This document shows, piece after piece, positions 43,598 to 60,077 of a stretch of 64,000 nucleotides of DNA (positions are counted from its first letter, which is position 1; every line of letters begins with the position of its first letter). Under the pieces are notes generated by a model. That model was not told the origin of the DNA. It saw only the letters and a list, made by a program, of their open reading frames with translations, and did no database searches. The DNA lies in the NCBI GenBank assembly GCA_963422395.1, contig OY729431.1, positions 320,001 through 384,000 of the forward strand, written 5' to 3'. Source of the stretch: Vicinamibacteria bacterium (GTDB lineage Bacteria > Acidobacteriota > Vicinamibacteria > Marinacidobacterales > Marinacidobacteraceae). Made by a program: the position numbers and the translations under genes.

Positions 43598-43713
43598 GAC
43601 GCGGGGACTTGCCAGTATCGCCGGAGCACCGGCGAACGAGGGCGCCGGCCCACGAACCGGTGCCGCCGCTTTCTTTGCGCGCCGGTTTTGCGGGCACTAC
43701 CATCTTATGCGCG

Positions 43714-45930
43714 ATGTTCCTGCGATCCGGGCTGGCAGTGCTGACCTTTGCGGCGATCTGCTCCCCCGGAGCAGGTGCCGCGAATTCTGCCGGGAACCTG
43801 CGGGCGCCCCGGCAGGAACCGAACGAGAAGGAGCAGATCGAAGCCCTTCCCGAACATCACCGGGTCTGGCTCGTCGAAGAGGTCCCGTATCTCATCACCG
43901 ACCGCGAAAAGCGGGTCTTTCTGACCCTGACTTCCGAGCGCCAGCGCGACTCGTTCGTTTCCGCCTTCTGGCGCAAGCGGGATCTCAACCCCTCGACTCC
44001 GGAGAACGAGTTCCGAGACGAGCACTACGAACGGCTGGACTATGCGAACAACTGGCTCGGGCGCGACACCTTCCGGGAGGGCTGGGAAACGGACCGCGGC
44101 CGGTATTACATCCTGCTCGGCAAGCCGCGTTCGATCCAGAACTACGAAGCCCGCGACGAGATCTATCCGACGGAACTGTGGTTCTACAACAACTCCGAAC
44201 TGAAGCGTTTCGGCCTGCCGGCGTTCTTCTACCTGCTGTTCTGGCGCCGCCACGGGGTGGGGGAGCTGCAGCTCTACGACCCCATCTCGGACGGTCCGCC
44301 GGCGCTGCTGACCGGCTACCAGCCCGAGCGGCAGGACTTCCGCAACGAGGTGGAGCGAGCCTACGAGATCCTCTACGAGTTCGACCCCGAGGTCGCGAAC
44401 GCGGCGATGTCCTTCCGCACCGACGAGCAGGACATCACCCGCTTCCAGGCGGTGCCCTTCGGCACCCTTTCCCTGCTCCAGGACATCCATGAGGTGCCCT
44501 TCCGGGGTCTCGACGACAGCTACGCCGACCGGCTCGATTTCGAGAAGGGAGCGATCGAAGCCGACTACCTCTTCACCTATGTCCCCGGCCACGGAGCGAT
44601 GGCGGTCCTCCCCGGGCCCGAGGGGGCTTCGTTCCTCCACTGGGTCATCCAACTGGATGCCCAGCACACTGCCTTCGTGCGGAACGAGGATCGCGGCACC
44701 TTCGACACCGCTTTCATCGGGACCGTGGATATCGTCCTCCGCGACTCCCCGGAGCAGGTGGTCACCGAATTCCGCAAGGAATCCTTCGTCTCGCTGGACG
44801 ACGAGCAGCGCGCCGCGCTCCAGCGCCCGTTCTCCTGGGCCGGGGTGGTTCCGCTCATTCCGGGGGACCACACCGTCCGGATCGTGCTCCGGAACCGGGC
44901 CTGCGGTTCGCGCTCCGAAACGGACTGCTCCAAGAGTTACACCCTCGTCGAGGCGGAGGTGAGCGCTCCGCCGGCGGACGGCGCGCCGCGGCTCAGCGAC
45001 CTGGTGCTCGGGCGGCGCATCGAACCCCAGCGTCCGCAGTACCGCCCTTTCCGGCTCGGCTCCGCCGGCGTGGTCCCCAACCCGCAGGCGGTATATGCGA
45101 TAGGTGAGAATTTCGTTGCCGCCGCCGTGCCCGAGGGCGCCCCGGAAGGCGCGCGGGTCCGCTTCCGGATCGTGAGCCGCGAGCCGCTCACCGACGGCGA
45201 GCTGGCCTACGAGAGCGAGGCGCCGGCGGCGGCGGACGAGGCGAGCGGTTTCGTGGCGCTCGATTTTCCGCTGCTGGACATCGGGGCCGGCCGCTACGAG
45301 CTGGGTGCCGAGCTGCTCGACCGCGCGGGGGGTGTCCTGTCTTCGAGACGCGCCGGGTTCACGGTGTCCCCCCGAGGCAACCTCCTCGAGGCCGGTTTCC
45401 ACGGCACGATGCTTCCTTTTCCGCCGGAGAATTCGGGGTTCACGAGTCTCGCGATCGGCGAGCAGTGGATGGGTCTCGACCGCGGGGAGGAAGCCGGGCC
45501 GGTGCTCGAACGAGCGCTCGCCCTGGCCCCTCGGCTCGGGCGCGCCCGGGAACTGCTCGCCCGTCTCGAGATGGAGGCGGGGCGGGCCGACCGGGTGGTC
45601 GAGCTGCTCGAACCGGTGTACGCCGAGGTCCAGGATCGCTACGACCTGGTGCGGGTCCTCGGAGAGGCGTACTTTCAGCTGGCCCGCTACGAGGACGCCG
45701 AGGACCTGCTCGGCAAGGCCGTCCTTCTCGAAAATCCCGACCCCAGGAGCCTCAACCTGCTCGGCCTCGCCCGCTTCCAGGTCTCCGATTTCGCCGGCGC
45801 CCGCGAAGCGTTCCAACGCTCGCTCGCGCTCGATGGCGAACAGCCGGAAGTCGAAGAGGCCCTGGCCCGCGTCGGCGAAGCCGAACGAGCCCAGCCCTCC
45901 TCCCGCCCGCCGGGTGCAGGGGCACGATGA
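43714..45930 (+). CDS. GWxTD domain protein with C-terminal TPRs
   Basis: WLVEEVPYLIT, FWRKRD, EGWETDRG; TPR tail. Confidence 0.9.
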   Translation: MFLRSGLAVLTFAAICSPGAGAANSAGNLRAPRQEPNEKEQIEALPEHHRVWLVEEVPYLITDREKRVFLTLTSERQRDSFVSAFWRKRDLNPSTPENEFRDEHYERLDYANNWLGRDTFREGWETDRGRYYILLGKPRSIQNYEARDEIYPTELWFYNNSELKRFGLPAFFYLLFWRRHGVGELQLYDPISDGPPALLTGYQPERQDFRNEVERAYEILYEFDPEVANAAMSFRTDEQDITRFQAVPFGTLSLLQDIHEVPFRGLDDSYADRLDFEKGAIEADYLFTYVPGHGAMAVLPGPEGASFLHWVIQLDAQHTAFVRNEDRGTFDTAFIGTVDIVLRDSPEQVVTEFRKESFVSLDDEQRAALQRPFSWAGVVPLIPGDHTVRIVLRNRACGSRSETDCSKSYTLVEAEVSAPPADGAPRLSDLVLGRRIEPQRPQYRPFRLGSAGVVPNPQAVYAIGENFVAAAVPEGAPEGARVRFRIVSREPLTDGELAYESEAPAAADEASGFVALDFPLLDIGAGRYELGAELLDRAGGVLSSRRAGFTVSPRGNLLEAGFHGTMLPFPPENSGFTSLAIGEQWMGLDRGEEAGPVLERALALAPRLGRARELLARLEMEAGRADRVVELLEPVYAEVQDRYDLVRVLGEAYFQLARYEDAEDLLGKAVLLENPDPRSLNLLGLARFQVSDFAGAREAFQRSLALDGEQPEVEEALARVGEAERAQPSSRPPGAGAR

Positions 45931-46279: not shown

Positions 46280-47848
46280 CTACTCCGAACCGAGAGCGAC
46301 GATCGGATCCAGCCGCGCCGCACGCCGCGCCGGTACCAGCCCGGCGACCACTCCGGTCGCGAGCGCTACCACGAAGGCGAGCCCCCCGGCTCCTGCCGAG
46401 ATTTCGACCCGCAGCCCGAAAGCGTCCTGGACCAGAAGCGCGGCTGCCGCTCCCAGTGCGACCCCGAAGAGCCCGCCGGCTGCGCCCAGCAGCACTGATT
46501 CCGTGAGGAACTGGCTCCCCACATCCCCGGTCCGCGCCCCCACTGCCATCCGCAACCCGATTTCCCGGATCCGTTCCCGGACGGAGAGCAGCATCACATT
46601 CGAGATCCCGATGGCGCCTACCAGCAGCGAAACCAGGGCGATGGAGAGGAGCAGCGCCGACATGGTCCGGCTCGACTGTTCCAGAGTGGCCGCCAGCTGG
46701 CGCAGCGTCGTTCGTTCGAGGTTCGGGATGTTTCCGGCGAGCGTCTGGGCCACTTTCGGATGGAGTCCCTTCCCGAGCACTTCGGATGCCTGGGTCGAGA
46801 CGGTGAAATCGTCGGCCTGCGCTTCGCCGATCCCATGCCGTTCACGCAGCAGCTCGGTGATCTCCCGAGCGACCTCGGTGACTCGGCCCGAGGAAGCGGC
46901 GGTCACCGTGATGGTGTTCAGGTTCGTCAGATTCAACAGCCGGTGGACGGTGGTGAAGGGGGTGTACACCGCGTCGAATTCATCGTCCCCCGGCACCCCC
47001 GGGTTCAGCCAGTTCGAGCTCGCCACCACCCCGACGACTTCGAAGGTCTGGTTCCAGATGGTGACCTCGCGGCCCACCGGGTCTTCTTCCTGGCCGAACA
47101 GCTGGTCGCGGGCCACGCTCCCGAGCACCGCCACCTGCTCCGCTCGGCGCAGCTCGCGGGCGCTGAAGAACCGCCCGTGCTGGATCGCGAACGAGCGGCG
47201 GATCTGCACCAGATCCACCGCGGTACCGTGCAGCCGGGTGAACCATCGGCGCTCGCCGCGAAAGACCCGCACGCTTTCGTGGACTCCGGGGGCTGCCTGG
47301 GCCACCCCGGCGAGCGCGCCGAGCGCGTCGGCGTCGTCCCGGGTCAGGGTGGCTGCGGCGCCGAGTCCGGCGGCCGAATCCCCGAGGCGTTCGGCAGCGG
47401 TCGGATGGTCGTGCTTCTCCATCGGATCGTTTTCGGGATGGGCGCGCGCCACCGGCTCGAGGCGCCGCCACAGTTTCCGCAGCATCTCCGACGGGAGCAG
47501 CCGGCCGTGCCGGATGGGAGCATCGATGCCGCCGATCGGCCGTTCCCCGCGGGCGCGGTAGTTGCCGGCCGTCACCTGGATCACATTCAGCCCCGCCGCC
47601 TGCACCTGCTCGCTGATCGCTGCCTGCGCTCCCCGCCCGAGCGCGATCGTCGCCATCAGCGCTGCCACTCCGAAGGCGAGGCCGATCAGGGTCAGTGCGG
47701 TGCGCAGGGGATAGCGCCGCAGGCTCTGGAGAGCCGTTTCCCCGGCGGTCCGCCGCTCGATGACGAGTTCCGGACGGGAGAGCCGCCGGAGCAATCTCGA
47801 AAAACGCCCGGCAGGCGGCTTTCGGTTGGGCATCTTTCGGTTGGGCAT
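46280..47848 (-). CDS. MacB/FtsX-type ABC permease with periplasmic insertions
   Basis: LRTALT, GISNVMLLSVRERIREIGLRMAVGA, LDPIVAL. Confidence 0.9.
   Translation of the reverse strand: MPNRKMPNRKPPAGRFSRLLRRLSRPELVIERRTAGETALQSLRRYPLRTALTLIGLAFGVAALMATIALGRGAQAAISEQVQAAGLNVIQVTAGNYRARGERPIGGIDAPIRHGRLLPSEMLRKLWRRLEPVARAHPENDPMEKHDHPTAAERLGDSAAGLGAAATLTRDDADALGALAGVAQAAPGVHESVRVFRGERRWFTRLHGTAVDLVQIRRSFAIQHGRFFSARELRRAEQVAVLGSVARDQLFGQEEDPVGREVTIWNQTFEVVGVVASSNWLNPGVPGDDEFDAVYTPFTTVHRLLNLTNLNTITVTAASSGRVTEVAREITELLRERHGIGEAQADDFTVSTQASEVLGKGLHPKVAQTLAGNIPNLERTTLRQLAATLEQSSRTMSALLLSIALVSLLVGAIGISNVMLLSVRERIREIGLRMAVGARTGDVGSQFLTESVLLGAAGGLFGVALGAAAALLVQDAFGLRVEISAGAGGLAFVVALATGVVAGLVPARRAARLDPIVALGSE
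47819..47848. repeat. Perfect 15-bp tandem duplication including the start codon
   Basis: ctttcggttgggcat x2, encoding MPNRK-MPNRK. Confidence 0.85.
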
Positions 47849-47855
47849 CTTCCGC

Positions 47856-48563
47856 TCAGCAGCCGGAGCTCTCTCCTGCGTTCTCCTCGAGGATCCGCCC
47901 GTCCCGCAATTCGACGCTCCGAGAGGCGTACTGCGCCACCTGCCGGTCGTGGGTGATCATCACCACAGTGAGCCCCCGTTCGGAGTTGAGGCGTGCGAAG
48001 GTGTCGAGGATCTCGCCCCCGGTCTGGGTATCCAGGTTGCCGGTGGGTTCGTCGGCGAGGAGAAGGCGCGGCCGGTTGGCGAGCGCCCTGGCGATGGCGA
48101 CCCGCTGCTGCTGTCCGCCCGAGAGCTGGCTCGGTGCGTGGGCCGCGCGGTCGGACAGCCGGACCGCGGCGAGCGCTTCTGCGGCCTGCTGACGCCGTTC
48201 GACCCGCCCTGGCCGGCGGGTTCCGTAGAGCATCGGAAGCTCCACGTTCTCGAGGGCGCTCGCCCGGGCGAGCAGGTGGAAGCTCTGGAAGACGAAGCCG
48301 ATCTCCTCGTTACGGATGCGCGCCCGTTCGTCGTTGTCCAGCCGGGACACATCGCGTCCCATGAGTCGGTATTCCCCGGAAGTGGGCTGATCGAGACAGC
48401 CGAGGATATGCATCAGGGTGCTCTTTCCCGATCCCGAAGGGCCGAGAACGGAAAGGAAGTCCCCCTCCTCCACCGAGAGGGAGAGCCCTCGCAGCGCCTC
48501 CACCCGGTGGTCTTCGCCGAGGACATAGGTCTTCACCAGATCCCGGACTTCGATCGCGTCCAT
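47856..48563 (-). CDS. MacB/LolD-type ABC ATP-binding protein
   Basis: GPSGSGKST, LSGGQQQRVAIARA, ADEPTGNLD. Confidence 0.93.
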   Translation of the reverse strand: MDAIEVRDLVKTYVLGEDHRVEALRGLSLSVEEGDFLSVLGPSGSGKSTLMHILGCLDQPTSGEYRLMGRDVSRLDNDERARIRNEEIGFVFQSFHLLARASALENVELPMLYGTRRPGRVERRQQAAEALAAVRLSDRAAHAPSQLSGGQQQRVAIARALANRPRLLLADEPTGNLDTQTGGEILDTFARLNSERGLTVVMITHDRQVAQYASRSVELRDGRILEENAGESSGC

Positions 48564-48656
48564 CGACAATCCTCCGCGCGGCTTCGTTCCGGAACCCGAT
48601 GAGCCAGAAACCATCGGGTCAGGAGGCCGGGTCGGAAAATCGGAAAGGGAGTCTGG

Positions 48657-50357
48657 TCAAGGAGCGGGTTCGGAAACCTCTTCTTGCTCTTCCTCCGCAG
48701 GGGCGTCGGGCAGCAGTCCCGCGTAGGCGTAGAGGAAGGTCGCCACCGTCTTCTCGCCGCCGGCCATCCCGTACACCTCACCCGCTCCCTCGATCACCCA
48801 GAACTCGTTCGCCGCGTGGGCGCCCCCGCCGTGTCCCCCGGCTCCGCCCACGATCGGCATGGCGAGATCCGTCCCGTCCGGGAGCGAGCCGTCTCTCCCG
48901 CTGAACAGATATGCCGGCCAGTAGCCCCCGAGGATGGATTCGCCCTCGATCGGCTGCCGGTAACGGATGTCGAAGATGTCGTAGGTACGCAAGAGCGACT
49001 CCGCCGCACGGTTGTCGTAGTTGGATTTCGACCACGGGACATCGCCGACGATCGTCATCTCCACATCCTCGTATCCCTGCTCGTCGAGGTAGTCGCGGAC
49101 CTTCTGCACCATGGCCAGCCCGTCCTGGCCCGGCACATAGCGGATGTTGTGCTTGGAGGTGATCCGGTTCGGCAGGATCGCGCCGGCCCCGCCGGGGTAC
49201 ATGTTCCCGGCCCAGACCCCGTCCATGTTGAAGGAGATCCCGTAGCGCGCGTTCTTCAGATGCTGCAGCGGATCGTCGGTCATGAAGCGGGCCACCCCGA
49301 TGTTCTCGGCGGCGACCGTGAGGTCCAGGTTTTCCGCCGCGCTTCGGAACATCGCCTCCTCGGCGGGGGTCAGCGGGGCGGCGCCGTCGTAGAAGCCGGG
49401 CACCAGCACCCGGTTTCCGTCGTCGGAGATCAGGGTGGACAGCATCTTGATGTGCCGCAGCGCGGGAGCGTCGGTGGAGCGCTTGTGGGCGCCGTGGATG
49501 TTCGAGGCCAGCGGACCCCGGCCCCAGCTCGCCCCGCTCGTCGTCAACTCGATGTACACGCACCCCTCCGAACCGCCGCCGATCCCGGCGGCCCCGGAGC
49601 GCGACTGCGACCCGAAGCGGTACATGGCCTCGGCCTCTCGGAAGAGCTCGGGGTTCTCCCGCACGAACTGGCGCAGGCCGATGGACATCCGCTCCTCGTC
49701 CCCCTCGGCGACGAAGATCAGGTTCACCGGCATCGAGCCCGTCACCTCGTAGATCGAGTGGAAGGCGTTCCACTGGGTCATCTGCGGCCCCTTCGAGTTC
49801 GTGGCACCCCGCCCAACCATCACTTTCTGGAACGGACCGAACTCGGTCAGCTCGCCGTCGAACGGCGGCAGCACCCAGGCCTCGGGCTGGGTGATCGGCA
49901 TCGTGTCGTACATCCAGTAGATGAGCAGCGTCCGCTCCTGTCCGTAGTCGCAGTTGGCATAGACGACCGGGTTGCCCGGCTGCCCCCACTCGGTCATGGG
50001 AATGTCGTACACCTGCGACTGCTGGCAGCCGAGCTGGTCGAAGAAGCCCTTGACCATCTGGGCGGACTCGGGGATGCCCTCGCCGGAGTTGGAAATGCTG
50101 GGCTGCTGGATCCAGCGGCGGAGGTTCGTCACATGGCGGTCCACGTTCTCGTCGATGTGGGCGAACACCTGCCGCAGTTCCTCGGGGAGCTGTTCGAGGT
50201 CGGGGGCGATCTCGGTGTCGCCCTGCGCCCGGATCCCGAGAGTCTCCCCGGCGGCTGAGCCCGCCTCGTCCTCCGCCTCCGGCGCCCCGCAGCCGTAAAT
50301 GGCCAACCCGGAAAGGGCCAGCGCCAACACACCGCATCGAAACGCTTCGGGCATCAT
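48657..50357 (-). CDS. M20 family metallopeptidase/amidohydrolase lipoprotein (intact copy)
   Basis: GRGATNSKG, EGDEE and GAHAANE; lipobox IYGC; the usual HxD reads MYD. Confidence 0.85.
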   Translation of the reverse strand: MMPEAFRCGVLALALSGLAIYGCGAPEAEDEAGSAAGETLGIRAQGDTEIAPDLEQLPEELRQVFAHIDENVDRHVTNLRRWIQQPSISNSGEGIPESAQMVKGFFDQLGCQQSQVYDIPMTEWGQPGNPVVYANCDYGQERTLLIYWMYDTMPITQPEAWVLPPFDGELTEFGPFQKVMVGRGATNSKGPQMTQWNAFHSIYEVTGSMPVNLIFVAEGDEERMSIGLRQFVRENPELFREAEAMYRFGSQSRSGAAGIGGGSEGCVYIELTTSGASWGRGPLASNIHGAHKRSTDAPALRHIKMLSTLISDDGNRVLVPGFYDGAAPLTPAEEAMFRSAAENLDLTVAAENIGVARFMTDDPLQHLKNARYGISFNMDGVWAGNMYPGGAGAILPNRITSKHNIRYVPGQDGLAMVQKVRDYLDEQGYEDVEMTIVGDVPWSKSNYDNRAAESLLRTYDIFDIRYRQPIEGESILGGYWPAYLFSGRDGSLPDGTDLAMPIVGGAGGHGGGAHAANEFWVIEGAGEVYGMAGGEKTVATFLYAYAGLLPDAPAEEEQEEVSEPAP

Positions 50358-50458
50358 CGGAAATCTCCTCAGAAAATCGAGACCGGAGTGCGGCCGTTCG
50401 TAACTTCCAGCACCATCGGCGCCAGCAGACCAGACGACACGCCGGACGACAGAGGGAG

Positions 50459-50488
50459 AAGATATGCGGGCGTCCTCCGCCGTGTCAA
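50459..50488 (-). promoter_or_regulatory. Putative sigma70 promoter of the M20-ATPase-permease unit
   Basis: TTGACA-18 bp-TATCTT on the minus strand. Confidence 0.45.
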
Positions 50489-51738
50489 AGATACGAGCCG
50501 TCTTCTGGTGCTGGGCCTTCGCTGCGGCGTTCGCCTGCGGTCCGCCTGCCCGGGCTCCCGCGGACGCCTCTCCCCGGACCGCCGACGCCCTCGCGGAACG
50601 CTACGTCCGGTTGGCGTTCGCGCTCGACGCCCTCGATCCTCTGTTCCTCGATCTGGTCTTCGTTTCCGCACCAGCCGGCCTGCGAGGTAGCGACGGAAGC
50701 CCGGCGCTCTCGCTCGCCGAAATCGCGGAACGCGCCGGTCGCCTCGCCGAGGCTGCGGGAGGCATCGCGCGCACCGAGGACGAATTCCGCGTGCGCCGGA
50801 TCACCGCTTCGATTCGGGCGTTGGGCTTTCGCGCCCGCGCGCTGCTCGGCGAACGCCGAACGGTTCGGGAGGAGTTGCGCGAGGTGTTCGGCCTCGACTG
50901 GACCGAGCCGGCCATCGCCCTCGAACGCCTCCACTTCCGGGTGGACCGCGCCCTTCCCGGAGTGGGGCCGCTCCGGGTGCGGGTCCGCCGGCACTACGAA
51001 CGGGCCGGCGTTTCCAGCGAGAGCGCTTCTTCCTCCCTCGCCGAGGCCCTCGCCCGGTGCCGCGCGCGGATGCTCCCGGAGCCGGCGCCGCTCGCGCTCG
51101 AACCGCTGCGCCTCGCGTGGGTCCCTCCTGCCGCTGCGTCGCGGCTGCCGACCGGACCGGCACCCTTCTACCGCTATGAGGGGGCGGGGCGCGGGGTGCT
51201 CCGGTTGCCTGCCGGCCTCGCTTTCCGGCCTGGGGAATTCGACCGGCTCGCCTGCCACGAGGGGGTCCCCGGCCACCATTTGCAGGCAGTGGTCGCCGAT
51301 CGGCACTTCCGCGCCACCGGCTGGCCGGAACTGGGGATCGTCCCACTCTACGGGCCGCGCACTGCGGTGTTCGAGGGCCTCGCCGCGACCTTCGAGCGGT
51401 TGGCGCCCGCCGATGCTGCGGACGAAGCTCTCCGGGATCTCGAACCGGTCGTCACCGGGGTGCTCGCCCGCTACCTCGACGGCGAACTCGGCCGTCTCGA
51501 GGCGCTGCGGGCTCTCGATTTCGAAGCGCTCGTTCCCGATCCGCATGCTCTCCTCGACCACGCCGACCGCTTCGGGGGGTACGCTTTGGTTCGGCCCCCG
51601 GCCGATCCCGTGTTCCGCGCCGCTCTCGAAACCCTGCTCGACCCCGGCCTCAGTCGGGATGACCGCTTCCGAACCACCGTGCGGGTTATCCGGGAGGCGA
51701 TGAGCCCGCGGGAACTCGTGGAGGTGCTGGGGCGATGA
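50464..51738 (+). CDS. DUF885-like putative zinc metalloprotein (lipoprotein)
   Basis: CHEGVPGHHLQ and downstream FEGLA; lipobox AFAC. Confidence 0.65.
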   Translation: MRASSAVSKIRAVFWCWAFAAAFACGPPARAPADASPRTADALAERYVRLAFALDALDPLFLDLVFVSAPAGLRGSDGSPALSLAEIAERAGRLAEAAGGIARTEDEFRVRRITASIRALGFRARALLGERRTVREELREVFGLDWTEPAIALERLHFRVDRALPGVGPLRVRVRRHYERAGVSSESASSSLAEALARCRARMLPEPAPLALEPLRLAWVPPAAASRLPTGPAPFYRYEGAGRGVLRLPAGLAFRPGEFDRLACHEGVPGHHLQAVVADRHFRATGWPELGIVPLYGPRTAVFEGLAATFERLAPADAADEALRDLEPVVTGVLARYLDGELGRLEALRALDFEALVPDPHALLDHADRFGGYALVRPPADPVFRAALETLLDPGLSRDDRFRTTVRVIREAMSPRELVEVLGR

Positions 51739-52283
51739 GACGCCTCGCTGCCCTCCCTGCGATTTGCCTGTTCTCCTGTTGTCTGTTCGCCTGCGGAGTG
51801 CCGGGTGAAGATCCAGACGCCGCCGGTGGCATGGATGGGACGGCTGGGATGGGCGGTATGGCGATGGCACACGGCGACCATTCTCCCCGCTATGGCGGCC
51901 ATGTGTTCATGCACGGCGATCTCCACTTCGAGGTCGTGCTCGGCGATAGCGGCGAACACCGCATCTACTTTTCGGACGCGATGCGGAGTGAGTTGCCGGC
52001 GGCAGTCGCCGAAGATGTACGGATCACCTTGCGGCGTGGTGGAGAAGGCGGGGAACTCGAACCACTCCGTCCCGAGATCGACGAGTTCGGCGAAGCCTGG
52101 GTGGCGCGCAGCCGCCCCATCGAGAGTGAAGACACTGCGGCCATCGTGTACTTCCGCTTCGAAGGCTCTCCTTACGAAATCGAAGTCCCCTACCTCATGG
52201 CGCCGCCCACGGTGGACCCGCATACCGGCAGGCTGCTTCCGGCGGCGCCCCCTCCGGATCCCCGCGGCGGTTCGGCGCCCTGA
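51735..52283 (+). CDS. His/Met-rich hypothetical lipoprotein (putative metal-binding)
   Basis: Lipobox LFAC; GMDGTAGMGGMAMAHGDHSPRYGGHVFMHGDLHFE; ATGA overlap. Confidence 0.75.
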   Translation: MRRLAALPAICLFSCCLFACGVPGEDPDAAGGMDGTAGMGGMAMAHGDHSPRYGGHVFMHGDLHFEVVLGDSGEHRIYFSDAMRSELPAAVAEDVRITLRRGGEGGELEPLRPEIDEFGEAWVARSRPIESEDTAAIVYFRFEGSPYEIEVPYLMAPPTVDPHTGRLLPAAPPPDPRGGSAP

Positions 52284-52418
52284 TCGCCGGCAAATCCGGA
52301 CGGTGGACTCGATGAAGTGATTCGCCGGCGGATCCTGGCTCGTGACCGGCGGAACCCGCTTGTCCCGATGGAGCCGAGCGCCGCGGAGTAGGGCCGAAAA
52401 CTCCGCCCCGAAGCGGGC

Positions 52419-53765
52419 CTACTCGGAGCGCAGCGCCACGATCGGATCGAGTCTCGACGCTCGCCGGGCGGGGTACCAGCCGAAAAAGACTCCGACCCCC
52501 GCTGCCAGCGTTGCGGCTCCCGCGACCGCGAGCGCCGGGATCAGCGTGCGCCAGCCGAGCAGCGCCTCGACCACCGAGGAGGAAAGCCCGCCGATCGCGA
52601 CCCCGAAGATTCCGCCCAGTACCGAAAGCCCCACCGCCTCGGCGAGGAACTGCCACATGACATCGCGCCGCCGCGCCCCCACCGCGAGCCGCAGTCCGAT
52701 CTCGCGGGTCCGCTCGGTGACTGCGAGCAGCATCACATTCATGATTCCGACGCCGCCCACGATCAGCGAGACGCCGGCGAGCGCTCCGAGCAGGAGCGTC
52801 ATCGTCGAGGTCGCCCGGTTCAGTGTGCCCACCATCTCTTCCGAGGTCACTTCGTCCAGTTTCGGCATCGAGGCGAGTACGAAGGCCGCCGCAGTGGTGT
52901 AGAGCCCCTGGGTCAGCGCCGAAGTGGCTTCGGTTCGTACCACGAAGTCGTCCGGCAGCCGCGCCCCGCGCCGGAAGGCGTGCGGTGCGTCGGACTCCGG
53001 AGGCGGTGCGGAGCGAGTCAGTTCGTGCCGTTCGCGCAACAGGTTCGACACGGCCCGCGCTACCCGAGAAGCGTCGCCGGCGCGCTCGGTTGCGATCGCC
53101 ACCGCCTGCAGATAGTCCCTGCCCACGAGTTCGAGCAACACCGGATAGGGGACCATGACCGCCTCGGCGAGCCGCCGGTCCGCCGACTGATAGACCCCGG
53201 CCACCTCGAATTCCCTCCCCCGGATCACCACCGTGCGCCCCACTGCAGATCCGCCGGGAAACAGTTCGGTCTCCACCGGGCCGGAGAGGAGCGCCGCCGG
53301 GCGCGCCTGCCGGACCGCTGCCGCGCCGAAGCTCCCCCCGTCGAGGAACCGCACCTGGTGGATCGAGGCGGCCTCGGCCGAGACTCCGAGGATCTGCGCG
53401 AACGATTCCCCGCTTTCCGACAGCAGCGCGGTTCGCTCCTCGACCACCGGGCTCACCATCGCCACTTCGGCGACCCCGCGGATCGCCTCGGCGTCTTCCA
53501 CGGTCAGAGTGTCGGCCCGTCCGAACCCCGAGGGGATGTTGACCGCGTCGCCGCCGCGGATGTAGTTGCCGGCGCGGACCACGATGATGTTCGTGCCGGC
53601 GGACCGGACTTCGTCCGCCACCGCCGCTCGCGCTCCCGAACCGAGAGCTGCCATCGTGATCACCGAGGCGACCCCGATGACCAGCCCGGTCAGCGCCAGC
53701 GCAGTCCGCAGCGGGTTCGCGGCGAGAGCCGCTCCTGCGGTTCGCAGCGGGAGGGGCGCTTCCAT
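52419..53765 (-). CDS. MacB/FtsX-type ABC permease
   Basis: GGVGIMNVMLLAVTERTREIGLRLAVGA, LDPIVALRSE. Confidence 0.9.
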   Translation of the reverse strand: MEAPLPLRTAGAALAANPLRTALALTGLVIGVASVITMAALGSGARAAVADEVRSAGTNIIVVRAGNYIRGGDAVNIPSGFGRADTLTVEDAEAIRGVAEVAMVSPVVEERTALLSESGESFAQILGVSAEAASIHQVRFLDGGSFGAAAVRQARPAALLSGPVETELFPGGSAVGRTVVIRGREFEVAGVYQSADRRLAEAVMVPYPVLLELVGRDYLQAVAIATERAGDASRVARAVSNLLRERHELTRSAPPPESDAPHAFRRGARLPDDFVVRTEATSALTQGLYTTAAAFVLASMPKLDEVTSEEMVGTLNRATSTMTLLLGALAGVSLIVGGVGIMNVMLLAVTERTREIGLRLAVGARRRDVMWQFLAEAVGLSVLGGIFGVAIGGLSSSVVEALLGWRTLIPALAVAGAATLAAGVGVFFGWYPARRASRLDPIVALRSE

Positions 53766-53862
53766 GGGGATGTGGAGTCTATGGATCTCTTCCGCCGCCC
53801 GAAAAGCCGCGGGCGCCTGCGGCGAGAGCTGCCGACGGCCGAATCCACGGCGGTGCGGCTCA

Positions 53863-53919
53863 TTGACAAGGGCCGACCCGATTCAAGATACTCGCCGATT
53901 CGGTTTCAAAAAACCGAAT
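53863..53919 (+). promoter_or_regulatory. Putative promoter and palindromic operator/5' hairpin of the TonB receptor gene
   Basis: TTGACA-18-GATACT followed by the inverted repeat attcggttt-caaa-aaaccgaat. Confidence 0.5.
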
Positions 53920-54101
53920 TCTCTCCTCTGTCCTTGATCCGACGGCGGGCGAGAACTCCGCGATGGACACCGTAACCCCATGATTTTTAGTCTTCGCGGA
54001 GTGAATCGGGCATGTTTTGCAGAGCGCGGCCCACTTGTTGCGGTTCTGCTCACATCTTTCCCCAGTTCCATGCTTCCGACCCCACAGGAGGACCAAACAG
54101 C

Positions 54102-57005
54102 ATGAGAAAATCGATTCTCTTCAGCCTGCTGTTGGCTTGGCCGGCCTCGGCCTTCAGCCAGCAGATCTACGGGCGCCTCGAAGGCGCTGCCAACGACGCG
54201 CAGGGCCTCGTTCTCCCCGGAGTGACGGTCACCCTCGAATCCGAGGAACTCGTTGCCCCGCGGACGGCCACCACCGATGTGGACGGCTCCTACCGGTTCG
54301 CCCAGCTCGTCGCTGGCAGCTACGACCTGACCTTCGAGCTCGGCGGTTTCCAGACGGTCGTCTTCGAAGACGTCATCGTGGTCGGCGGTTCGACCTTCGA
54401 GATCAACGCCTCGATGGACATCGCTACGGTCGCCGAGACAGTGACCGTGACCGGCGAGTCGCCGGTGGTGGATGTGAAGACCACCGGGGTGTCGGCGACT
54501 TTCGACACCACCCAGCTCGAGGATGTCCCATCGGCTACCGACATGTGGGCGGTTCTTCAGCAGAGCCCCGGCGTCCGGATGCGCGGCTACGATGTGGGGG
54601 GATCCCACAAGAGCCAGCAGTCCGGCTACGAGACCTTCGGCGTCCGCGGCCAGAACCGGATCATCAACGATGGGGTGAACACCACCGAGGGCACTGGCGG
54701 CGCCGGCGGCTACTACGACTTCTACGCCATCGGCGAGTTCCAGGTGTCGGCACAAGGTGCCGATGTGGAGATGTCGACCCCAGGCGCGCAGGTGAACGCA
54801 GTGTGGAAGAGCGGCGGCAACGACTTCTCCGGCACTCAGCACGGGGCTTGGGAGCCTGCCGATTGGATCGCCGACAACATCACCTCTGACCTTTCTTCCC
54901 GCGGCGGGACATCGGCTCCGGTCGTCGAGTTCTACGAATATCACCTCGATCTGGGCGGTCCGATCGTGCGGGACAAGGCGTGGTTCTACGCGGCGTACAA
55001 CCGCTTCGTCATCGACCGGATCATCTCCGGACAGGATCCGAGTGTTGCCACCGATCTCGGTGACTTCGACATGTTCACCGTCAAGGCCAACGTGCAGCTG
55101 ACCGAGCGGGATCAATTCATAACCTTCCATCATTGGTCCTTGAAACAAAAGCCGTTCCGTGGGTTGTCTGCCAATGTTCCGGCCGAATCCATCCGCGCCC
55201 AGGATTCCTGGACTTGGTTGCACAAGGCCGAGTGGCAGCGCGTGTGGAGCGATCGGCTCTACTCGAACATCCAGGTGAACCATTTCGGCTTCGGCTGGCC
55301 GATGGTCCCTGCGGTGGACCCGGCCTCTGCTCCCCCTCGTATCGATCTCGGGACGGACAAGTTGACCGGTGCCGGTTGGGGAGTCTTCACCTGGTATCGC
55401 TGGAAACCGCATTCCACCGGCCAGTTCAACTACTACCTGCCCACGGATGCAGGTAGCCACGACTTGAAGTTCGGATGGGATTGGCAGATCGACGAATCGC
55501 AGTTCGGTTGGAATTCGAATTCCGGTGCTATTCGATACCGCGATGACAGCAACCAGGATCCAGCGAGGCCTCACAATGTGAGGGAAGTGGATTTCTGGAG
55601 TGTTCCCAACCTGAATTACGACCGGAACACCCATCTGGATTTCTTTCTCCAGGATGTGTGGACCATCAACGATCGACTGACACTGAATGCAGGTGTCCGA
55701 GTCGGAAGCCAGTTCATGGCGTACCTCGATTCCGACAATGTTCCTGGCGGACCTTGCGTCGATGGTCTCGGGTGTGTTCGTGAGATCGCCGATATCGATC
55801 CGAATGTGGCAGCTGCGCTTCCGCAGTTGTTCGGGCCTGGTGCTCCGGTGTCGGGAGACTCCGTCATCAACTGGTGGAATATCGCTCCGCGAGTGGGCTT
55901 CACCTACGATCTCACCGGCGAAGGGCGGTCCGTTCTCAAGGGTTACTGGGGCCGTTACTACAGCAACATGGGAACAGGGATCGACGATGCCAATCCAGGA
56001 AGCAACAAAAATGTTCGGTACGAATTCCTCGACCACAATGAGAACGGTTTGTTCGACGGCGTCGGAGAGCTCGGAGCGCGGCTCTCGGGCAGTACGGGGG
56101 CAGGTTTGGGCGTGGAGCGTCCCGAACCTGTGGGGGATCCTGTCGACTCCGGTCTCTGGGTGCCTCATGTGGATGAACTGAGCCTTTCTGGTGAGCACCA
56201 GCTCGGTGCCGATCTCGGATTGCGTGCCTCTTTCGTGCACAAGCGCCAGACGGGTGGCTGGGACAACCTGAATATCGCCAGGATAGGAACGCTCACGAAC
56301 ACGCAGAATGTTCCGTGCCCGGCAGCCTGCGACACGGCCGGATTCGGCGGCACCACTCTTGCTGTGAATGGCTTGCCCGACGGCGCCCCGACCAGCGAGA
56401 ATCTGTATACGAACACTCCGGACGGAGAGTCCGATTTCCGATGGAGTACGGTATCCCTCGGGGTCAATCGCCGCTTCCGGAACAACTTCTTCTGGAATGC
56501 CTACTTCGACTATCAGTGGCGGCATGAAGGCCGGACTCCGGGCCAATCCACCAGCCCCCTGACTACCGACCCGGTGGGCGTCGGTTGGAGCTATCCGTAC
56601 GGTCCGATCTCCCTGATTCAGGATGTAACGAACTGGCAGTTCAAATCCGCCGGACGGTATGTCATGCCATACGACATCGGTACAGCAGGTACTCTTCGTT
56701 TCGTCAGCGGCTTTCCGTGGGCACCCTTGCTCTCGATCGGCGTTCCGAATGTCGGCAATCAGACGATTTTCCTCGACGATATCGGTAACCGCAGGTCCGA
56801 TAATGTGATGATTCTGGACTTCCGTCTCGACAAGACTTTCCCCATCGGAAACACGGCGGAGATTCAGCTGATCGCAGACGTTTTCAACGCACTGAACAAC
56901 GCTTCCGAAACGAACTTCAACATGAGTGCCGGCAGTGCGTTCCGGGAGCCCATCGAATGGATCCAGGGGCGCACGATCGGATTCAGCGCGAGGTTGACTT
57001 TCTAA
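54102..57005 (+). CDS. Oar-like TonB-dependent receptor with carboxypeptidase-regulatory N-terminal domain
   Basis: LPGVTVT, ETVTVTGESPVVD, LGGPIVRDKAWF, APRVGFTYD and C-terminal F; AGGAGG RBS. Confidence 0.92.
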   Translation: MRKSILFSLLLAWPASAFSQQIYGRLEGAANDAQGLVLPGVTVTLESEELVAPRTATTDVDGSYRFAQLVAGSYDLTFELGGFQTVVFEDVIVVGGSTFEINASMDIATVAETVTVTGESPVVDVKTTGVSATFDTTQLEDVPSATDMWAVLQQSPGVRMRGYDVGGSHKSQQSGYETFGVRGQNRIINDGVNTTEGTGGAGGYYDFYAIGEFQVSAQGADVEMSTPGAQVNAVWKSGGNDFSGTQHGAWEPADWIADNITSDLSSRGGTSAPVVEFYEYHLDLGGPIVRDKAWFYAAYNRFVIDRIISGQDPSVATDLGDFDMFTVKANVQLTERDQFITFHHWSLKQKPFRGLSANVPAESIRAQDSWTWLHKAEWQRVWSDRLYSNIQVNHFGFGWPMVPAVDPASAPPRIDLGTDKLTGAGWGVFTWYRWKPHSTGQFNYYLPTDAGSHDLKFGWDWQIDESQFGWNSNSGAIRYRDDSNQDPARPHNVREVDFWSVPNLNYDRNTHLDFFLQDVWTINDRLTLNAGVRVGSQFMAYLDSDNVPGGPCVDGLGCVREIADIDPNVAAALPQLFGPGAPVSGDSVINWWNIAPRVGFTYDLTGEGRSVLKGYWGRYYSNMGTGIDDANPGSNKNVRYEFLDHNENGLFDGVGELGARLSGSTGAGLGVERPEPVGDPVDSGLWVPHVDELSLSGEHQLGADLGLRASFVHKRQTGGWDNLNIARIGTLTNTQNVPCPAACDTAGFGGTTLAVNGLPDGAPTSENLYTNTPDGESDFRWSTVSLGVNRRFRNNFFWNAYFDYQWRHEGRTPGQSTSPLTTDPVGVGWSYPYGPISLIQDVTNWQFKSAGRYVMPYDIGTAGTLRFVSGFPWAPLLSIGVPNVGNQTIFLDDIGNRRSDNVMILDFRLDKTFPIGNTAEIQLIADVFNALNNASETNFNMSAGSAFREPIEWIQGRTIGFSARLTF

Positions 57006-57280: not shown

Positions 57281-57409
57281 CTGTGACCTTGCGGTAGGTT
57301 GTTCACGCGAGCCCGATGCCCGGAACTCATGGGTATCCACGATCTCTCAGCAGGAGGAGGCCGAGCGGGTCGGGCATCCTCGCGGGAGCGGGTCTCGTAC
57401 CCTTGCCGA

Positions 57410-58846
57410 ATGGGGCCTTCCGATCCGGGCTCTTCGCCTGCGAAACCTGCGAAACATCGGGAGGAGGGCAGCCGGGGACTCGACATCTATGCCGTCCTCG
57501 CTGGGCTGATCGCCGCTGCGGCACTTGCGACCTGGATCCTTCCGGCGGGGCGCTACGAGCGCACGGTGCTTCCCGACGGGCGGCAAACCGTGGTGCCCGG
57601 GTCCTACCGGGTGGTCGAGTCCTCCCCCGCCGGGTTCTGGGAGGTCGTGACCGCCATTCCCGACGGCCTGGCCGACGCCGCGAGCGTAGTCTTCCTGGTC
57701 TTCCTGGTCGCCGGTTCCGTGGGGGTGATGCGCCGGGCCGGGATCCTCGATCTCGGGGTGGACCGGCTCATCGCGGCGACCGGTCGGCGCGTGGAGCTGC
57801 TGATTCCAGCGCTCATGTTCGCCTTCGCCGCGGTCTCTGGAGTCGTGGGGATGCCCGAGCTCTCCATCGCCTATCTGCCGATCGTGCTGCCGCTCTTGCT
57901 GCGGTTGGGATGCGGAAGGGCGACGGGAACGGCGGTGGCCCTGCTCCCGACGACGCTGGGTGCGGCCTTCGGAGTGACGGTGCCGGCGACGGTCGGGATC
58001 GGTCACCTGCTGGCGGAGCTACCGCTGTTCTCCGGCGCCTCCTACCGATTCCTGTTCTTCCTCATCGTGCAGACGGCGGCGGCGGTCTTCGTGGTCCGGC
58101 GGGCGCGCCGCGAGATCGCCGGTTCGCACCGAACCGGACTGCCCCCCGGCCCGATGCGGGCGCGGGAGGAGGGGGAAGCGGCGGCGCCGGCGGGTTTCAG
58201 CCGCCGGCAGCAGGCGGCGGGCTTCCTCGCGCTCGGATCGTTCTCTGCTCTGGTGGTTTCGGTCCTCACTCTCGGCTTCGGGTTCGCGGAGATCTCCGGG
58301 GCCTTCGTCGCCATGGCGGTCGTCGTTTCGCTGGTGGCCGGCCGCGGGGTGAACCGGATCTGCTCCGACTTCAACGAGTCCTTTCGGGAAATCCTCGTCG
58401 GGGCGCTGGTCTGCGGGGTAGCTCGGGGCGTCTCGGTAGTGATGACCGAGGGGGCGGTCATGGACACGATCGTCCACGGCGCCGCGCTGCTGGTTTCCTC
58501 GCTGCCGCCCGCGCTCACCGCGGTCGGCATCCTCCTGGGGCAGACGCTCTTCAACTTCCTCGTGCCTTCGGGAAGCGGGCAGGCACTCATCACCCTGCCG
58601 ATCCTGGTGCCGGTCGGCGACCTCGCCGGAGTGACCCGGCAGGTCGTGGTGCTCGCCACCCAGTGGGGCGACGGGATCACGAATATCGTCTTCCCGACTT
58701 CCGGCTATTTCATGGCCACCCTGGTGATGGCGCGGGTGGGGCTCGGGGAGTGGCTGCGGTATTACCTTCCGCTCTTCGCCGTCGTCCTCGCCGTTGCGGC
58801 CGCCGGGCTCGCGCTGGCGCAGGCGGTGGCGCTCGGGCCGTTCTGA
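57410..58846 (+). CDS. YfcC/DcuC-like (ion transporter superfamily) membrane transporter
   Basis: TWILPAGRYER, PSGSGQA and GDGITNIVFPT; about 12 TM segments. Confidence 0.85.
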   Translation: MGPSDPGSSPAKPAKHREEGSRGLDIYAVLAGLIAAAALATWILPAGRYERTVLPDGRQTVVPGSYRVVESSPAGFWEVVTAIPDGLADAASVVFLVFLVAGSVGVMRRAGILDLGVDRLIAATGRRVELLIPALMFAFAAVSGVVGMPELSIAYLPIVLPLLLRLGCGRATGTAVALLPTTLGAAFGVTVPATVGIGHLLAELPLFSGASYRFLFFLIVQTAAAVFVVRRARREIAGSHRTGLPPGPMRAREEGEAAAPAGFSRRQQAAGFLALGSFSALVVSVLTLGFGFAEISGAFVAMAVVVSLVAGRGVNRICSDFNESFREILVGALVCGVARGVSVVMTEGAVMDTIVHGAALLVSSLPPALTAVGILLGQTLFNFLVPSGSGQALITLPILVPVGDLAGVTRQVVVLATQWGDGITNIVFPTSGYFMATLVMARVGLGEWLRYYLPLFAVVLAVAAAGLALAQAVALGPF

Positions 58847-58876
58847 GAACGGCACCTCGTCTTACGGAGACCAGAC

Positions 58877-59401
58877 ATGAAAACTCTCAGACTGCCGATC
58901 GAACCGATGACCGCGGAATCCTTCGCCCCCTACGGGGAGCTGATGGAACCGCAGGAGCGTCCCGCCGAGGGGAGGCGCTTCTTCCCGATCGACTTCCGGA
59001 TCCAGGGCCGCCTGACGGTGGATGTCATCTGGCAGCCCCTCGCGGGAAAGCGTTTTCGTCTGCTGGAACGGCATTTCGCGGTAACGCAGGCGTTCGTTCC
59101 CCTCGAGGGAGCGCCGGCGGTGGTGGCGGTAGCGCCGCCGACCGACCCGGACGACCCGGAAGCCGTCCCGAAGCCGGAAGCGGTGCGCGCGTTCCGGATC
59201 GACCCCGGGAAGGGATACGCCTACCGGATCGGCACCTGGCATTCGCTCGACCGCTACCTCCTCGAAGCGCCCGGAGCCAGTTTCTTGATCCTGAATGTGG
59301 ATCCGAATCCGACGCAGGTGGTGGACTACGCCGAGCGCTTCGGCGTCGAGTTCGAGATCGGGCCAGCGCTCAGCCGTCCGGAAGCGGCTTCCGGCGGGTG
59401 A
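58877..59401 (+). CDS. Ureidoglycolate lyase-like protein
   Basis: FAPYGEL, LERH...TQAFVP, GTWH. Confidence 0.8.
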   Translation: MKTLRLPIEPMTAESFAPYGELMEPQERPAEGRRFFPIDFRIQGRLTVDVIWQPLAGKRFRLLERHFAVTQAFVPLEGAPAVVAVAPPTDPDDPEAVPKPEAVRAFRIDPGKGYAYRIGTWHSLDRYLLEAPGASFLILNVDPNPTQVVDYAERFGVEFEIGPALSRPEAASGG

Positions 59402-60077
59402 GCGCGTCGAGTTCGCGCCCGATCTCCTCCCGTTCGGTGCGGAGGCGGGCGGCGTCGAGGGCGCTCTCGAACCGGTTCGGATGGCGCGGCGCCACCGGAA
59501 GGCCGCTCGCGCCGATCGCCGCGAGCGAGGCTTCGATGTCCAGGAGTCGTTCCCGCAGCTCGGCGGCCCGTTCTGCCTGCTCCGTCGGGCCGGCTGCCGG
59601 CGGTTCGGGATCGAAAGTGCTGTCTGCTTCCTCTTCTCCCACTTCGTCTTCCAGGTCCACTTCGCCTCTCCCCGAGTCGTCTTCTCCCGTATCCGCTTCC
59701 CAGCCTGCCCCCTCTTCCGGCGGCCAGAGATCGCGGCTCGGGAGAACGGCTGCCCCGAAGGGGTCCGGGGAGGGCCCCCGAGAGCGGTCCGGGCGATGGA
59801 ATCCGGCGAGGTCGGTATCGGTGAAGAGCGGCGCCGGGCCGCGCTCCCGGCGGCTCGCCGCCACCCGGGCGCGGTTTCGCTGCGCGGCCTCGACGAGGAT
59901 GGTCTGAAGACGGCCTTCTCGTTCTTCGGCCGGTAGCAGGGCCCTTTCCTCGGGGTCCCAGACAGCGGTCTCACCGAGACCGCCGGCAGCGAGAAACGCC
60001 GTGAAGGCGGTGACGGCGAGAACCGCAGGGCGCGGTTCAGCCGATGGCCGGATCGCCGAAACGGTTCCGGAGGACAT
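59370..60077 (-). CDS. Hypothetical protein (signal/TM segment, acidic linker, coiled-coil C-terminus)
   Basis: Fills the gap downstream of the Tat protein; hydrophobic N-terminal segment; start uncertain. Confidence 0.55.
   Translation of the reverse strand: MSSGTVSAIRPSAEPRPAVLAVTAFTAFLAAGGLGETAVWDPEERALLPAEEREGRLQTILVEAAQRNRARVAASRRERGPAPLFTDTDLAGFHRPDRSRGPSPDPFGAAVLPSRDLWPPEEGAGWEADTGEDDSGRGEVDLEDEVGEEEADSTFDPEPPAAGPTEQAERAAELRERLLDIEASLAAIGASGLPVAPRHPNRFESALDAARLRTEREEIGRELDALTRRKPLPDG

Follow-up and report, generated by a model that had tools for sequence, protein, structure and literature searches.

A co-inherited gene cluster of adaptor-less type VII ABC permeases with a rare insert before the stalk helix, found from Acidobacteriota to marine Gammaproteobacteria

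To our knowledge, there are few ABC (ATP-binding cassette) systems of type VII with known partners and jobs, these being MacAB-TolC, LolCDE-LolA, FtsEX-EnvC, YbbAP-TesA, HrtBA and BceAB. FtsEX works by mechanotransmission with EnvC, a periplasmic hydrolase activator, and the ABC complex NosDFY, for which no substrate is transported, is believed to hand metal on from a chaperone lipoprotein to an enzyme of the periplasm. YbbAP-TesA is a type VII ABC-hydrolase complex working with a periplasmic partner (PMC12646458). Two further reports describe ZrgABCDE of Vibrio cholerae and PA4063-PA4066 of Pseudomonas aeruginosa as operons that combine a MacB-type permease, a separate ATPase and a periplasmic His-rich metal-binding protein and that include no adaptor (PMC9820375, PMC11481552), with pyochelin-cobalt export proposed for PA4064/PA4065 (PMC11481552), and NosL is presented as a copper chaperone, its system assembling nitrous oxide reductase's copper centre (PMC8457098). 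Here we analyse a gene cluster of two MacB/FtsX-type permeases, one ATPase and three predicted lipoproteins within a stretch of 64,000 nucleotides ("the window", genome positions 320001-384000) from the single-contig, 2.9 Mb genome of a Vicinamibacteria bacterium. The cluster is a conserved, previously undescribed variant of type VII ABC systems, which probably performs ATP-powered work between the two membranes and is not an ordinary drug pump; its substrate is perhaps a metal or a metal-bound peptide. No published description of the cluster was found in the literature searched, most subscription journals lying outside it.

A sequence-only reading of the window had proposed twin MacB-type permeases with a shared insertion, a His/Met lipoprotein, two metallopeptidase-type lipoproteins and a TonB receptor, and domain searches confirmed the positions of all the genes that it named. 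The features of the cluster are as follows (window coordinates; TM2, second transmembrane helix).

46280-47848, minus strand: permease A, 522 aa from the first ATG, type VII ABC (MacB/FtsX), from Pfam
46676-46813, minus strand: pre-TM2 insert of permease A, residues 346-391, DDFTVSTQASEVLGKGLHPKVAQTLAGNIPNLERTTLRQLAATLEQ, from a hidden Markov model (HMM) derived from relatives of permease B
47360-47560, minus strand: periplasmic loop of permease A, residues ~97-163, from motif conservation
47856-48614, minus strand: ABC ATPase, 252 aa, from Pfam ABC_tran
48657-50357, minus strand: predicted M20-fold lipoprotein, 566 aa, from Pfam Peptidase_M20
50464-51738, plus strand: predicted DUF885-like lipoprotein, 424 aa, with CHEGVPGHH, from its motif (Pfam DUF885 below cut-off)
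51735-52283, plus strand: predicted small lipoprotein with a His motif, here also Met-rich, 182 aa, no Pfam or NCBIfam match
52419-53765, minus strand: permease B, 448 aa, from Pfam
52815-52952, minus strand: pre-TM2 insert of permease B, residues 272-317, from alignments and spacing

Because the G+C content of the window is ~69%, it contains many spurious open reading frames (ORFs), and the genuine genes were singled out by the domain searches. Both permeases belong to the type VII ABC class (MacB/FtsX fold), with Pfam matches to MacB_PCD and FtsX for A (1.2e-34 and 2.3e-19) and for B (6.5e-29 and 1.3e-18), and they share 35% identity over their full length (BLASTP 2e-70). The AlphaFold model of A (predicted local distance difference test, pLDDT, 81.2) gave its best Foldseek matches to the MacB structures 5gko, 5nik and 5lil (E 1e-24 to 1e-22) and also matched chains of LolCDE, HrtBA, YtrEF and YbbAP. 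The true start of A is uncertain, since its relatives align from about residue 27-39; the nearest of these (72-83% identity) are in metagenome-assembled genomes (MAGs) labelled Candidatus Marinacidobacterium or Vicinamibacteria. The ATPase (ABC_tran 1.8e-34), the sole one of the cluster, has the Walker A, signature, Walker B and H-loop motifs, and its nearest NCBIfam models are those of the MacB nucleotide-binding domain (248 bits) and LolD (238 bits), both under the equivalog cut-offs. Among B-type relatives, two proteins of 716 aa (P0036) and 750 aa (P0044) contain two FtsX stretches and one periplasmic domain; these may be the C-terminal half of the preceding permease fused to B, or gene-calling errors, and were not used as evidence for a heterodimer.

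The described systems with the closest make-up each differ from this locus. With MacAB-TolC it shares the four-helix FtsX-type membrane domain and MacB_PCD, MacB chains being the best matches in both sequence and fold, whereas the ATPase here is a separate gene, there are two to three paralogous permeases in place of a MacB homodimer, no MacA is linked and an extra helix-turn-helix of ~30 residues precedes the TM2 stalk; the MacB equivalog cut-off of 966 bits was not reached by A (183.5), B (203.4) or the ATPase (248). LolCDE is similar in its heteromeric make-up, which for this cluster is suggested by a single LolD-like ATPase accompanying two permeases that are paralogues, in its lack of an adaptor and in the lipoproteins that are encoded here alongside. 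Scores were again below the equivalog cut-offs (lolCE 19.2 and 28.1 bits against 362.45; LolD 237.7 against 307.75), and an invariant His loop, the pre-TM2 insert and a partner that is not a lipoprotein in Gammaproteobacteria all set the cluster apart. Nor are A and B members of the duplicated orphan permeases (ADOP), since they score 113 and 116 bits against a cut-off of 622 and have one module per chain.

Both A and B carry the insert, a homologous stretch of ~30 residues just ahead of TM2. In alignments with solved MacB chains, residues 249-306/310 of B were unmatched, with a corresponding gap in the chain of only 7 residues in Acinetobacter baumannii MacB and 12 in that of E. coli; within this stretch ~20 residues before the DDF motif are particular to B and ~30 after it are common to A. 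When the 15,053 six-frame ORFs of the genome were searched with a 45-position HMM built from B-type relatives only, exactly two matched, B itself (1.1e-28) and A (2.5e-8). The FtsX domain is matched 17 times in the genome, over 11 frames. In six of the other permeases, once the correct frame is read, ~20-25 residues lie between the last strand and TM2. The insert is thus absent from the solved MacB structures and from the other FtsX-type permeases of the genome. Its length is strictly kept: the spacing from DDF to TM2 was 65 in 119 of the 120 best relatives of B (down to 43% identity), with one lying outside the TM2 pattern, and 65 or 66 in 156 permease ORFs from 80 loci. In the model of A, a strand (348-352) is followed by two helices (353-360 and 364-371) and then by the long stalk/TM2 helix (374-425); the insert helices, of moderate local pLDDT (~64-75), thus come after the periplasmic domain's final strand and before the stalk.

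A search of 1.84 billion cluster representatives with a profile of the insert, built from 21 sequences of all three permease types, gave 97 matches at E<=1e-3, of which 68 reached E<=1e-10; a large share of these proteins are fragments. Among 401 Acidobacteriota genomes, 15 (that of the window included) matched the insert, and the copies per genome numbered 2 (10 genomes), 3 (4), 5 (1) or 6 (1) and never 1, with the reservation that some copies may be missed because only 17 first-look candidates were scored per genome. The B-derived HMM missed the third permease of Gammaproteobacteria, which does have the insert according to direct alignment and spacing. The insert is therefore a rare, clade-specific feature. 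In this respect the sequence-only reading held up well: its two quoted insert sequences were exact, the homology of the two insertions was borne out by the structure alignments and the HMM, the insert proved not to be common in ordinary MacB proteins, and insert-bearing permeases do come in pairs or larger sets. The word "twin" fits the two permeases of the window, but not the many relatives in which a third paralogous permease is present.

To determine how widely the genes are kept together, genomes (one per species) were scanned with two peptide patterns specific to A, and 158 species genomes were found to encode a relative of permease A. The best 80 loci from these 158 genomes were then searched, as six-frame ORFs, with the proteins of the window. 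They come from Acidobacteriota (Marinacidobacterium-like, Vicinamibacterales and Terriglobia), one Longimicrobiaceae MAG and Gammaproteobacteria (Pseudohongiella, Halieaceae, Congregibacter and Chromatocurvus). In the subset of 48 loci with at least 8 kb upstream and at least 6 kb downstream of A, partners were sought within 10 kb, with the following results.

ATPase, adjoining permease A: 45 of 48 loci (threshold 200 bits)
M20-like protein: 44 of 48 loci, with two copies in 18 (threshold 400 bits)
Permease B, within 10 kb of A: 42 of 48 loci (threshold 250 bits)
DUF885-like protein: 40 of 48 loci (threshold 40 bits)
His-motif protein: 40 of 48 loci (threshold 60 bits)
Receptor of the window's type: 11 of 48 loci (threshold 200 bits)

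Some of the misses are frameshifted assemblies (L040, L064 and L071) or matches below threshold (L066, L071 and L075). Each of the 16 gammaproteobacterial loci has those of the genes that it contains on a single strand, as a co-directional array that starts with M20 and the ATPase, continues with A, the His-motif protein, the third permease and B, and ends with (a second M20 and) the DUF885-like protein. No strict rule linked M20 copy number to permease number in the loci compared. The permeases, one ATPase and the M20-like, DUF885-like and His-motif proteins are thus co-inherited across three phyla, in agreement with the co-occurrence that had been anticipated for the latter two. In a quick tree, whose outgroup branches are very long and whose root is uncertain, 36 sampled insert-bearing permeases were separate from three other permeases of the genome (support 81), A formed one group (99) and the third permease was its sister (99). 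For A and B alike, the gammaproteobacterial sequences branched from within the acidobacterial ones, which is what one would expect had the cluster been transferred whole. An Amidohydro_3 protein lies near the cluster in a gammaproteobacterial locus (L063:1690-3366, minus strand) and in a Vicinamibacterales locus (L052:18067-19896, minus strand), the two copies matching at 758 bits, and may be a further occasional member.

The absence of MacA from the window, as first read, was upheld by the HlyD_D23 and HlyD_3 models, which matched 8-9 places in the genome and none inside the window. The nearest HlyD-family adaptor is encoded just past the end of the window (genome 387335-388948) in another ABC cluster. 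This neighbouring cluster (genome 387335-392057) is canonical-looking, with the adaptor followed by two FtsX-type permease genes that are without the insert. When seven adaptor proteins of the genome were used as queries, an ORF resembling a membrane fusion protein was found in only 1 of the 80 loci, and there it was located outside the cluster. With no adaptor in the window and one in 80 loci, the system is not a pump of the MacAB-TolC type.

Permease A carries a second distinctive element, a loop that joins the first strand of its periplasmic domain to the first helix and bears the near-invariant motif HPE[ND]DPMEKH[DN]HPTAxxRLGDxxAGLGxAATLT. Residues H137, E139, P142, H146, H148, P149, R154, L155 and G156 were invariant in 74 A sequences from three phyla, and the loop has a pLDDT below 50 in the monomer model, a pattern that would fit a segment folding on a partner or a metal. 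The loop alone gave no meaningful match in Pfam or the PDB. It is absent from B, and the third paralogue has a long loop at the same place from which the motif is absent.

The small His-motif protein had no sequence match in Pfam, NCBIfam or the PDB, and none of its 369 relatives has a Pfam domain or a name. Its N-terminal motif is HGDHxPxxGGxVxMxGDLHFE, in which H46, H49, H64 and E66 are invariant. The model (pLDDT 82.6) is an immunoglobulin-like beta-sandwich whose best fold neighbours have Z of 10.7 (DUF4426), 9.9 (CrdA, a copper-resistance protein), 8.3-9.1 (HftA, FtrA-P19 and Tp34, which are Fe/Cu proteins) and 7.4 (CopC); a Foldseek search of the PDB was without matches at E<=1e-3. The Z values of carbohydrate-binding modules fall in this range too, and therefore the beta-sandwich fold alone shows no function. 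The gammaproteobacterial protein has a plain signal peptide and no Cys, and its His motif stands at or beside the predicted mature N-terminus. Of the His/Met character first given to this lipoprotein, the His motif is invariant, whereas the Met-rich stretch occurs in just 14 of 60 family members, which are those of the window's clade together with L042 and L067. In two gammaproteobacterial loci (L067:11535-12125 and L072:1778-2362) the N-terminal tails are rich in Met, Asp and His (e.g. MDHGSMNMD...MDSMPDHG), and we take these to recall the Met/His repeats of copper-resistance proteins.

Each of the three exported proteins of the window is predicted to be a lipoprotein from a hydrophobic leader followed by Cys, and the lipobox is found in the M20-like and DUF885-like proteins of every lineage looked at. 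The M20-like protein belongs to the M20 family (Peptidase_M20 32.3 bits, cut-off 24.6), with Sso-CP2, carnosinase, CNDP2 and Dug1 as its best PDB relatives (profile E 1e-27 to 1e-44). Its ligand positions, which we assigned on the assumption that the canonical motifs are HxD, GxxDxKG and xEE, were read in alignments to 4mmo, 2pok and 3dlj, with conservation taken over 88 sequences. The ligand His of HxD is Met149 in 79 of the 88 and Gln in the other 9, the bridging Asp of GxxDxKG is Asn187 in all 88 and the fourth ligand, Asp/Glu, is replaced by Arg/Gly, while Glu-Glu (221/222) and the last His (514) are unchanged. With three of the five ligands of the dinuclear site (His, bridging Asp, Glu, Asp/Glu, His) lost family-wide in an otherwise highly conserved protein, it is unlikely to be an ordinary metallopeptidase and, as judged from these substitutions, would be unable to hold a canonical dinuclear zinc site. 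The earlier description as an M20 metallopeptidase-type lipoprotein is therefore right in fold and lipobox and fails at the metal site.

The CHEGVPGHH protein appears to be a distant DUF885 relative. Its match to Pfam DUF885 (PF05960; E 3.4e-4, 20.8 bits over 41 residues) is below the gathering cut-off of 32.4, 14 of 25 family members match DUF885 at E<=0.01 (best 9e-6) and the nearest named Atlas cluster is DUF885, with a score of 0.87. C264, H265, E266, G270, H271, H272 and a downstream E304 were invariant in 25 sequences, so that the HExxPGHH motif and its following Glu are both present. Searches of PDB sequences with the single sequence and with a profile gave no significant match, 3iuk reaching just E 0.31. 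The motif that had suggested DUF885 is thus firmly conserved, but the family link is distant.

A TonB-type receptor, a promoter-like site and a further gene flank the cluster in the window.

53863-53920, plus strand: promoter-like site and inverted repeat, from sequence, 5' of the receptor gene
54012-57005, plus strand: outer-membrane TonB-type receptor, 997 aa, from Pfam CarboxypepD_reg and OMP_b-brl_4
43609-45930, plus strand: GWxTD/TPR protein, from domain searches

The receptor matched CarboxypepD_reg (2.4e-14, 53.8 bits) and OMP_b-brl_4 (5.5e-31, 108 bits) above cut-off and Plug (1.3e-3, 19.7 bits) below the cut-off of 23.9. Within 10 kb a TonB-type receptor was found in 20 of the 80 loci: 13 have a receptor of the window's type (at least 200 bits), in some cases inside the cluster directly upstream of M20, and 7 of the 16 gammaproteobacterial loci have a different receptor type, divergent from M20. 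The link is recurrent but loose, and such receptors are numerous in these genomes; the receptor, which the sequence-only reading counted as part of the system, is linked in only about a quarter of loci. The stretch 55000-56999 of the receptor gene has 57-58% G+C against 66-71% in its flanks, which could be a compositional oddity or a sign of later acquisition. Upstream of the gene, the site consists of TTGACA-18-GATACT followed by the inverted repeat ATTCGGTTT-4-AAACCGAAT, with arms of 9 bp and a 4-base spacer. This promoter-like block, divergent from permease B, is kept in five related loci, and its repeat is a candidate operator.

Since the insert is rare and never single in a genome, the genes are co-inherited and no MacA-type adaptor goes with them, it is reasonable to infer that A and B would assemble into a heteromer whose targets are partners in the periplasm. 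The heterodimeric type VII ABC first proposed is in this way favoured by fold, insert, pairing and co-inheritance. The account to which we give somewhat better than even chances is that of an adaptor-less heteromeric type VII ABC machine working with periplasmic partners, most likely on a metal or metal-peptide. In such a machine the one ATPase gene would provide two ATPase copies for an A-B heterodimer, as in LolC-LolE-LolD2, and ATP binding and hydrolysis would, judging from the fold, move the long stalk helices, which are preceded by the clade's extra helix-turn-helix, in mechanotransmission. This movement would drive periplasmic work and not transport across the inner membrane. The small HGDH...H.E beta-sandwich protein would be a metal carrier, the M20-fold lipoprotein with its degenerate dinuclear site may be a binding module or a non-canonical enzyme, and the DUF885-like lipoprotein with its zincin-type HExxPGHH...E is a likely hydrolase; the two lipoproteins could bind or cut an organic moiety, or be the recipients of the metal. 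The probable site for docking or metal exchange is the invariant His/Asp/Glu loop in A's periplasmic domain, where a metal, or a metal-bound peptide from the TonB-dependent receptor, may be stripped, passed on or loaded. Hints of metal are given by this loop, by H46, H49, H64 and E66, by the fold neighbours CrdA, P19, HftA, Tp34 and CopC and by the Met/His/Asp-rich tails in several lineages. The Cu/Ni of the sequence-only reading is a guess, as the conserved ligands are His/Asp/Glu and few members have the Met-rich stretch.

Several observations weigh against this account. The genes of the window are held in four transcription units, and permease B is without an ATPase gene of its own. The first unit (minus strand) runs from M20 through the ATPase to permease A, and the second (plus strand) from the CHEGVPGHH gene to the His/Met gene, these two overlapping by 4 bases, divergent from the M20 gene and convergent on permease B; permease B alone (minus strand) and the receptor gene, divergent from it (plus strand), make up the third and fourth. 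Since the DUF885-like and His/Met genes are on the plus strand, the window does not contain a single operon. Partners are missing from the 10 kb around A in 4 of the 48 loci (L014, L017, L020 and L021), although in the case of L020 and L021 there are B-type proteins on contigs of equal length, and the receptor is linked in only the minority of loci given above. Metal binding by the cluster's proteins would follow from their residues, and the fold of the His-motif protein is a common one, for which Z of 8-11 shows no function. As to contacts among the parts, a complex prediction with the M20-like protein, the His-motif protein and, as the partner, the periplasmic domain of A gave scores of 0.43, 0.42 and 0.48, with 0.27 in a control in which the M20 chain was replaced, and counts neither for nor against binding. 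Where a cluster has three permeases, they cannot all fit one dimer, which leaves more than one subunit make-up possible. A search of the 16 gammaproteobacterial loci for Zur- and Fur-like boxes found none near the cluster, a weak test given the motifs used.

The systems introduced at the outset offer parallels in logic, and none of YbbAP-TesA, ZrgABCDE/PA4063-PA4066 and NosDFY-NosL is homologous to the cluster in its partners. Like YbbAP-TesA and FtsEX-EnvC, the cluster places an adaptor-less type VII ABC next to genes for periplasmic hydrolase folds, as far as the genes themselves indicate, whereas its partners are unrelated to theirs (M20 fold, DUF885-like and beta-sandwich) and its permeases are multiple separate four-helix paralogues. 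NosDFY-NosL is alike in logic alone: NosY has another membrane fold, NosD is without a counterpart here and there is no sequence relation. ZrgABCDE and PA4063-PA4066 share the MacB-type ABC, the split ATPase, the lack of an operon adaptor and a periplasmic His-containing protein. They differ in having one permease and no M20 or DUF885-like genes; they are Zur-regulated, while the weak test above found no Zur-like box in the gammaproteobacterial loci, and ZrgA/PA4063 has a ferredoxin-like fold, unlike the beta-sandwich here, whose profile finds no such PDB chain.

Other explanations were weighed on the same evidence. A more specific, and in our judgement unlikely, form of the metal account is a periplasmic machine for metal transfer or metal-centre assembly, in which the HGDH protein would deliver to the loop of A, and A-B (or A-A'-B) would load or remove the metal of the M20-fold site or of a receptor-imported metal-peptide, the NosDFY-NosL logic having arisen independently on another ABC fold. 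Alternatively, the system may regulate a hydrolase without any metal traffic, the ABC binding the M20-like and/or DUF885-like lipoprotein so that ATP-driven movement activates or feeds a hydrolase on peptides, envelope material or membrane-embedded compounds, with the His motifs structural or catalytic. In its favour, 44 of 48 loci have the M20-like gene immediately upstream of that for the ATPase, a degenerate peptidase fold beside a type VII ABC resembles EnvC and the DUF885-like protein retains its zincin-type motif; ABC-hydrolase complexes do exist, as YbbAP-TesA shows (PMC12646458). We nevertheless hold it to be improbable, as it leaves unexplained both the co-inherited His-motif protein, whose fold neighbours are periplasmic metal binders, and the invariant His/Asp/Glu loop of A, and it too presupposes binding to the partners.

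Export of a peptide, metallophore or antimicrobial from the periplasm or outer leaflet, in the manner of PA4064/PA4065 or MacB and with the peptidase-like proteins as accessories, would accord with MacB as the closest solved relative in fold and sequence and with the public annotation of relatives as 'antimicrobial peptide transport system permease'; PA4063-PA4066 is a precedent in being an adaptor-less operon with a metal-binding protein and proposed pyochelin-cobalt export (PMC11481552). This too has a low probability in our view, since 79 of the 80 loci are without a linked MacA-type adaptor and hence without an evident outer-membrane route (the search did not cover exit ducts), the receptor that often lies nearby serves uptake and three co-inherited exported proteins would be unexplained. 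We rate as very unlikely a Lol-like sorter, in which a heteromeric ABC would extract the cluster's own lipoproteins from the inner membrane toward the outer membrane or cell surface. Two paralogous permeases with a LolD-like ATPase (238 bits) do reproduce the make-up of LolCDE, the M20-like and DUF885-like lipoboxes are found in all lineages looked at and LolCDE chains are among the fold matches of A, but the gammaproteobacterial His-motif protein has an ordinary signal peptide and no Cys, the lolCE model scored 19-28 bits against a cut-off of 362, other FtsX-type permease pairs of the genome could serve as Lol, and the invariant His loop would have no explanation. That the genes are chance neighbours and the insert an ordinary variation of MacB-type permeases, as their distribution over both strands and four units might suggest, is contradicted by the synteny in three phyla, the rarity of the insert and the multi-copy rule, and we regard it as hardly credible.

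As an adaptor-less machine with two to three paralogous permeases, the cluster would extend the list of type VII ABC systems with partners. It stands out by a clade-specific insert where the stalk begins and by a His-rich loop, invariant and periplasmic, and one of its fixed partners has a peptidase fold from which the canonical metal site has been lost. Conservation from Acidobacteriota to marine Gammaproteobacteria makes the system testable in cultured Halieaceae or Pseudohongiella that carry it, and, if the metal account is true, it bears on how metals are moved and inserted in the ATP-free periplasm.

Two minor observations concern the flanks of the cluster. The GWxTD protein (773 aa, with C-terminal TPR repeats) is convergent on permease A and is the same neighbour in 11 of 48 loci, all of them close relatives. 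Beyond the receptor gene, two long ORFs overlap on opposite strands, at 57316-59907 (plus strand, 863 aa) and 58862-61336 (minus strand, 824 aa), both without a Pfam match.

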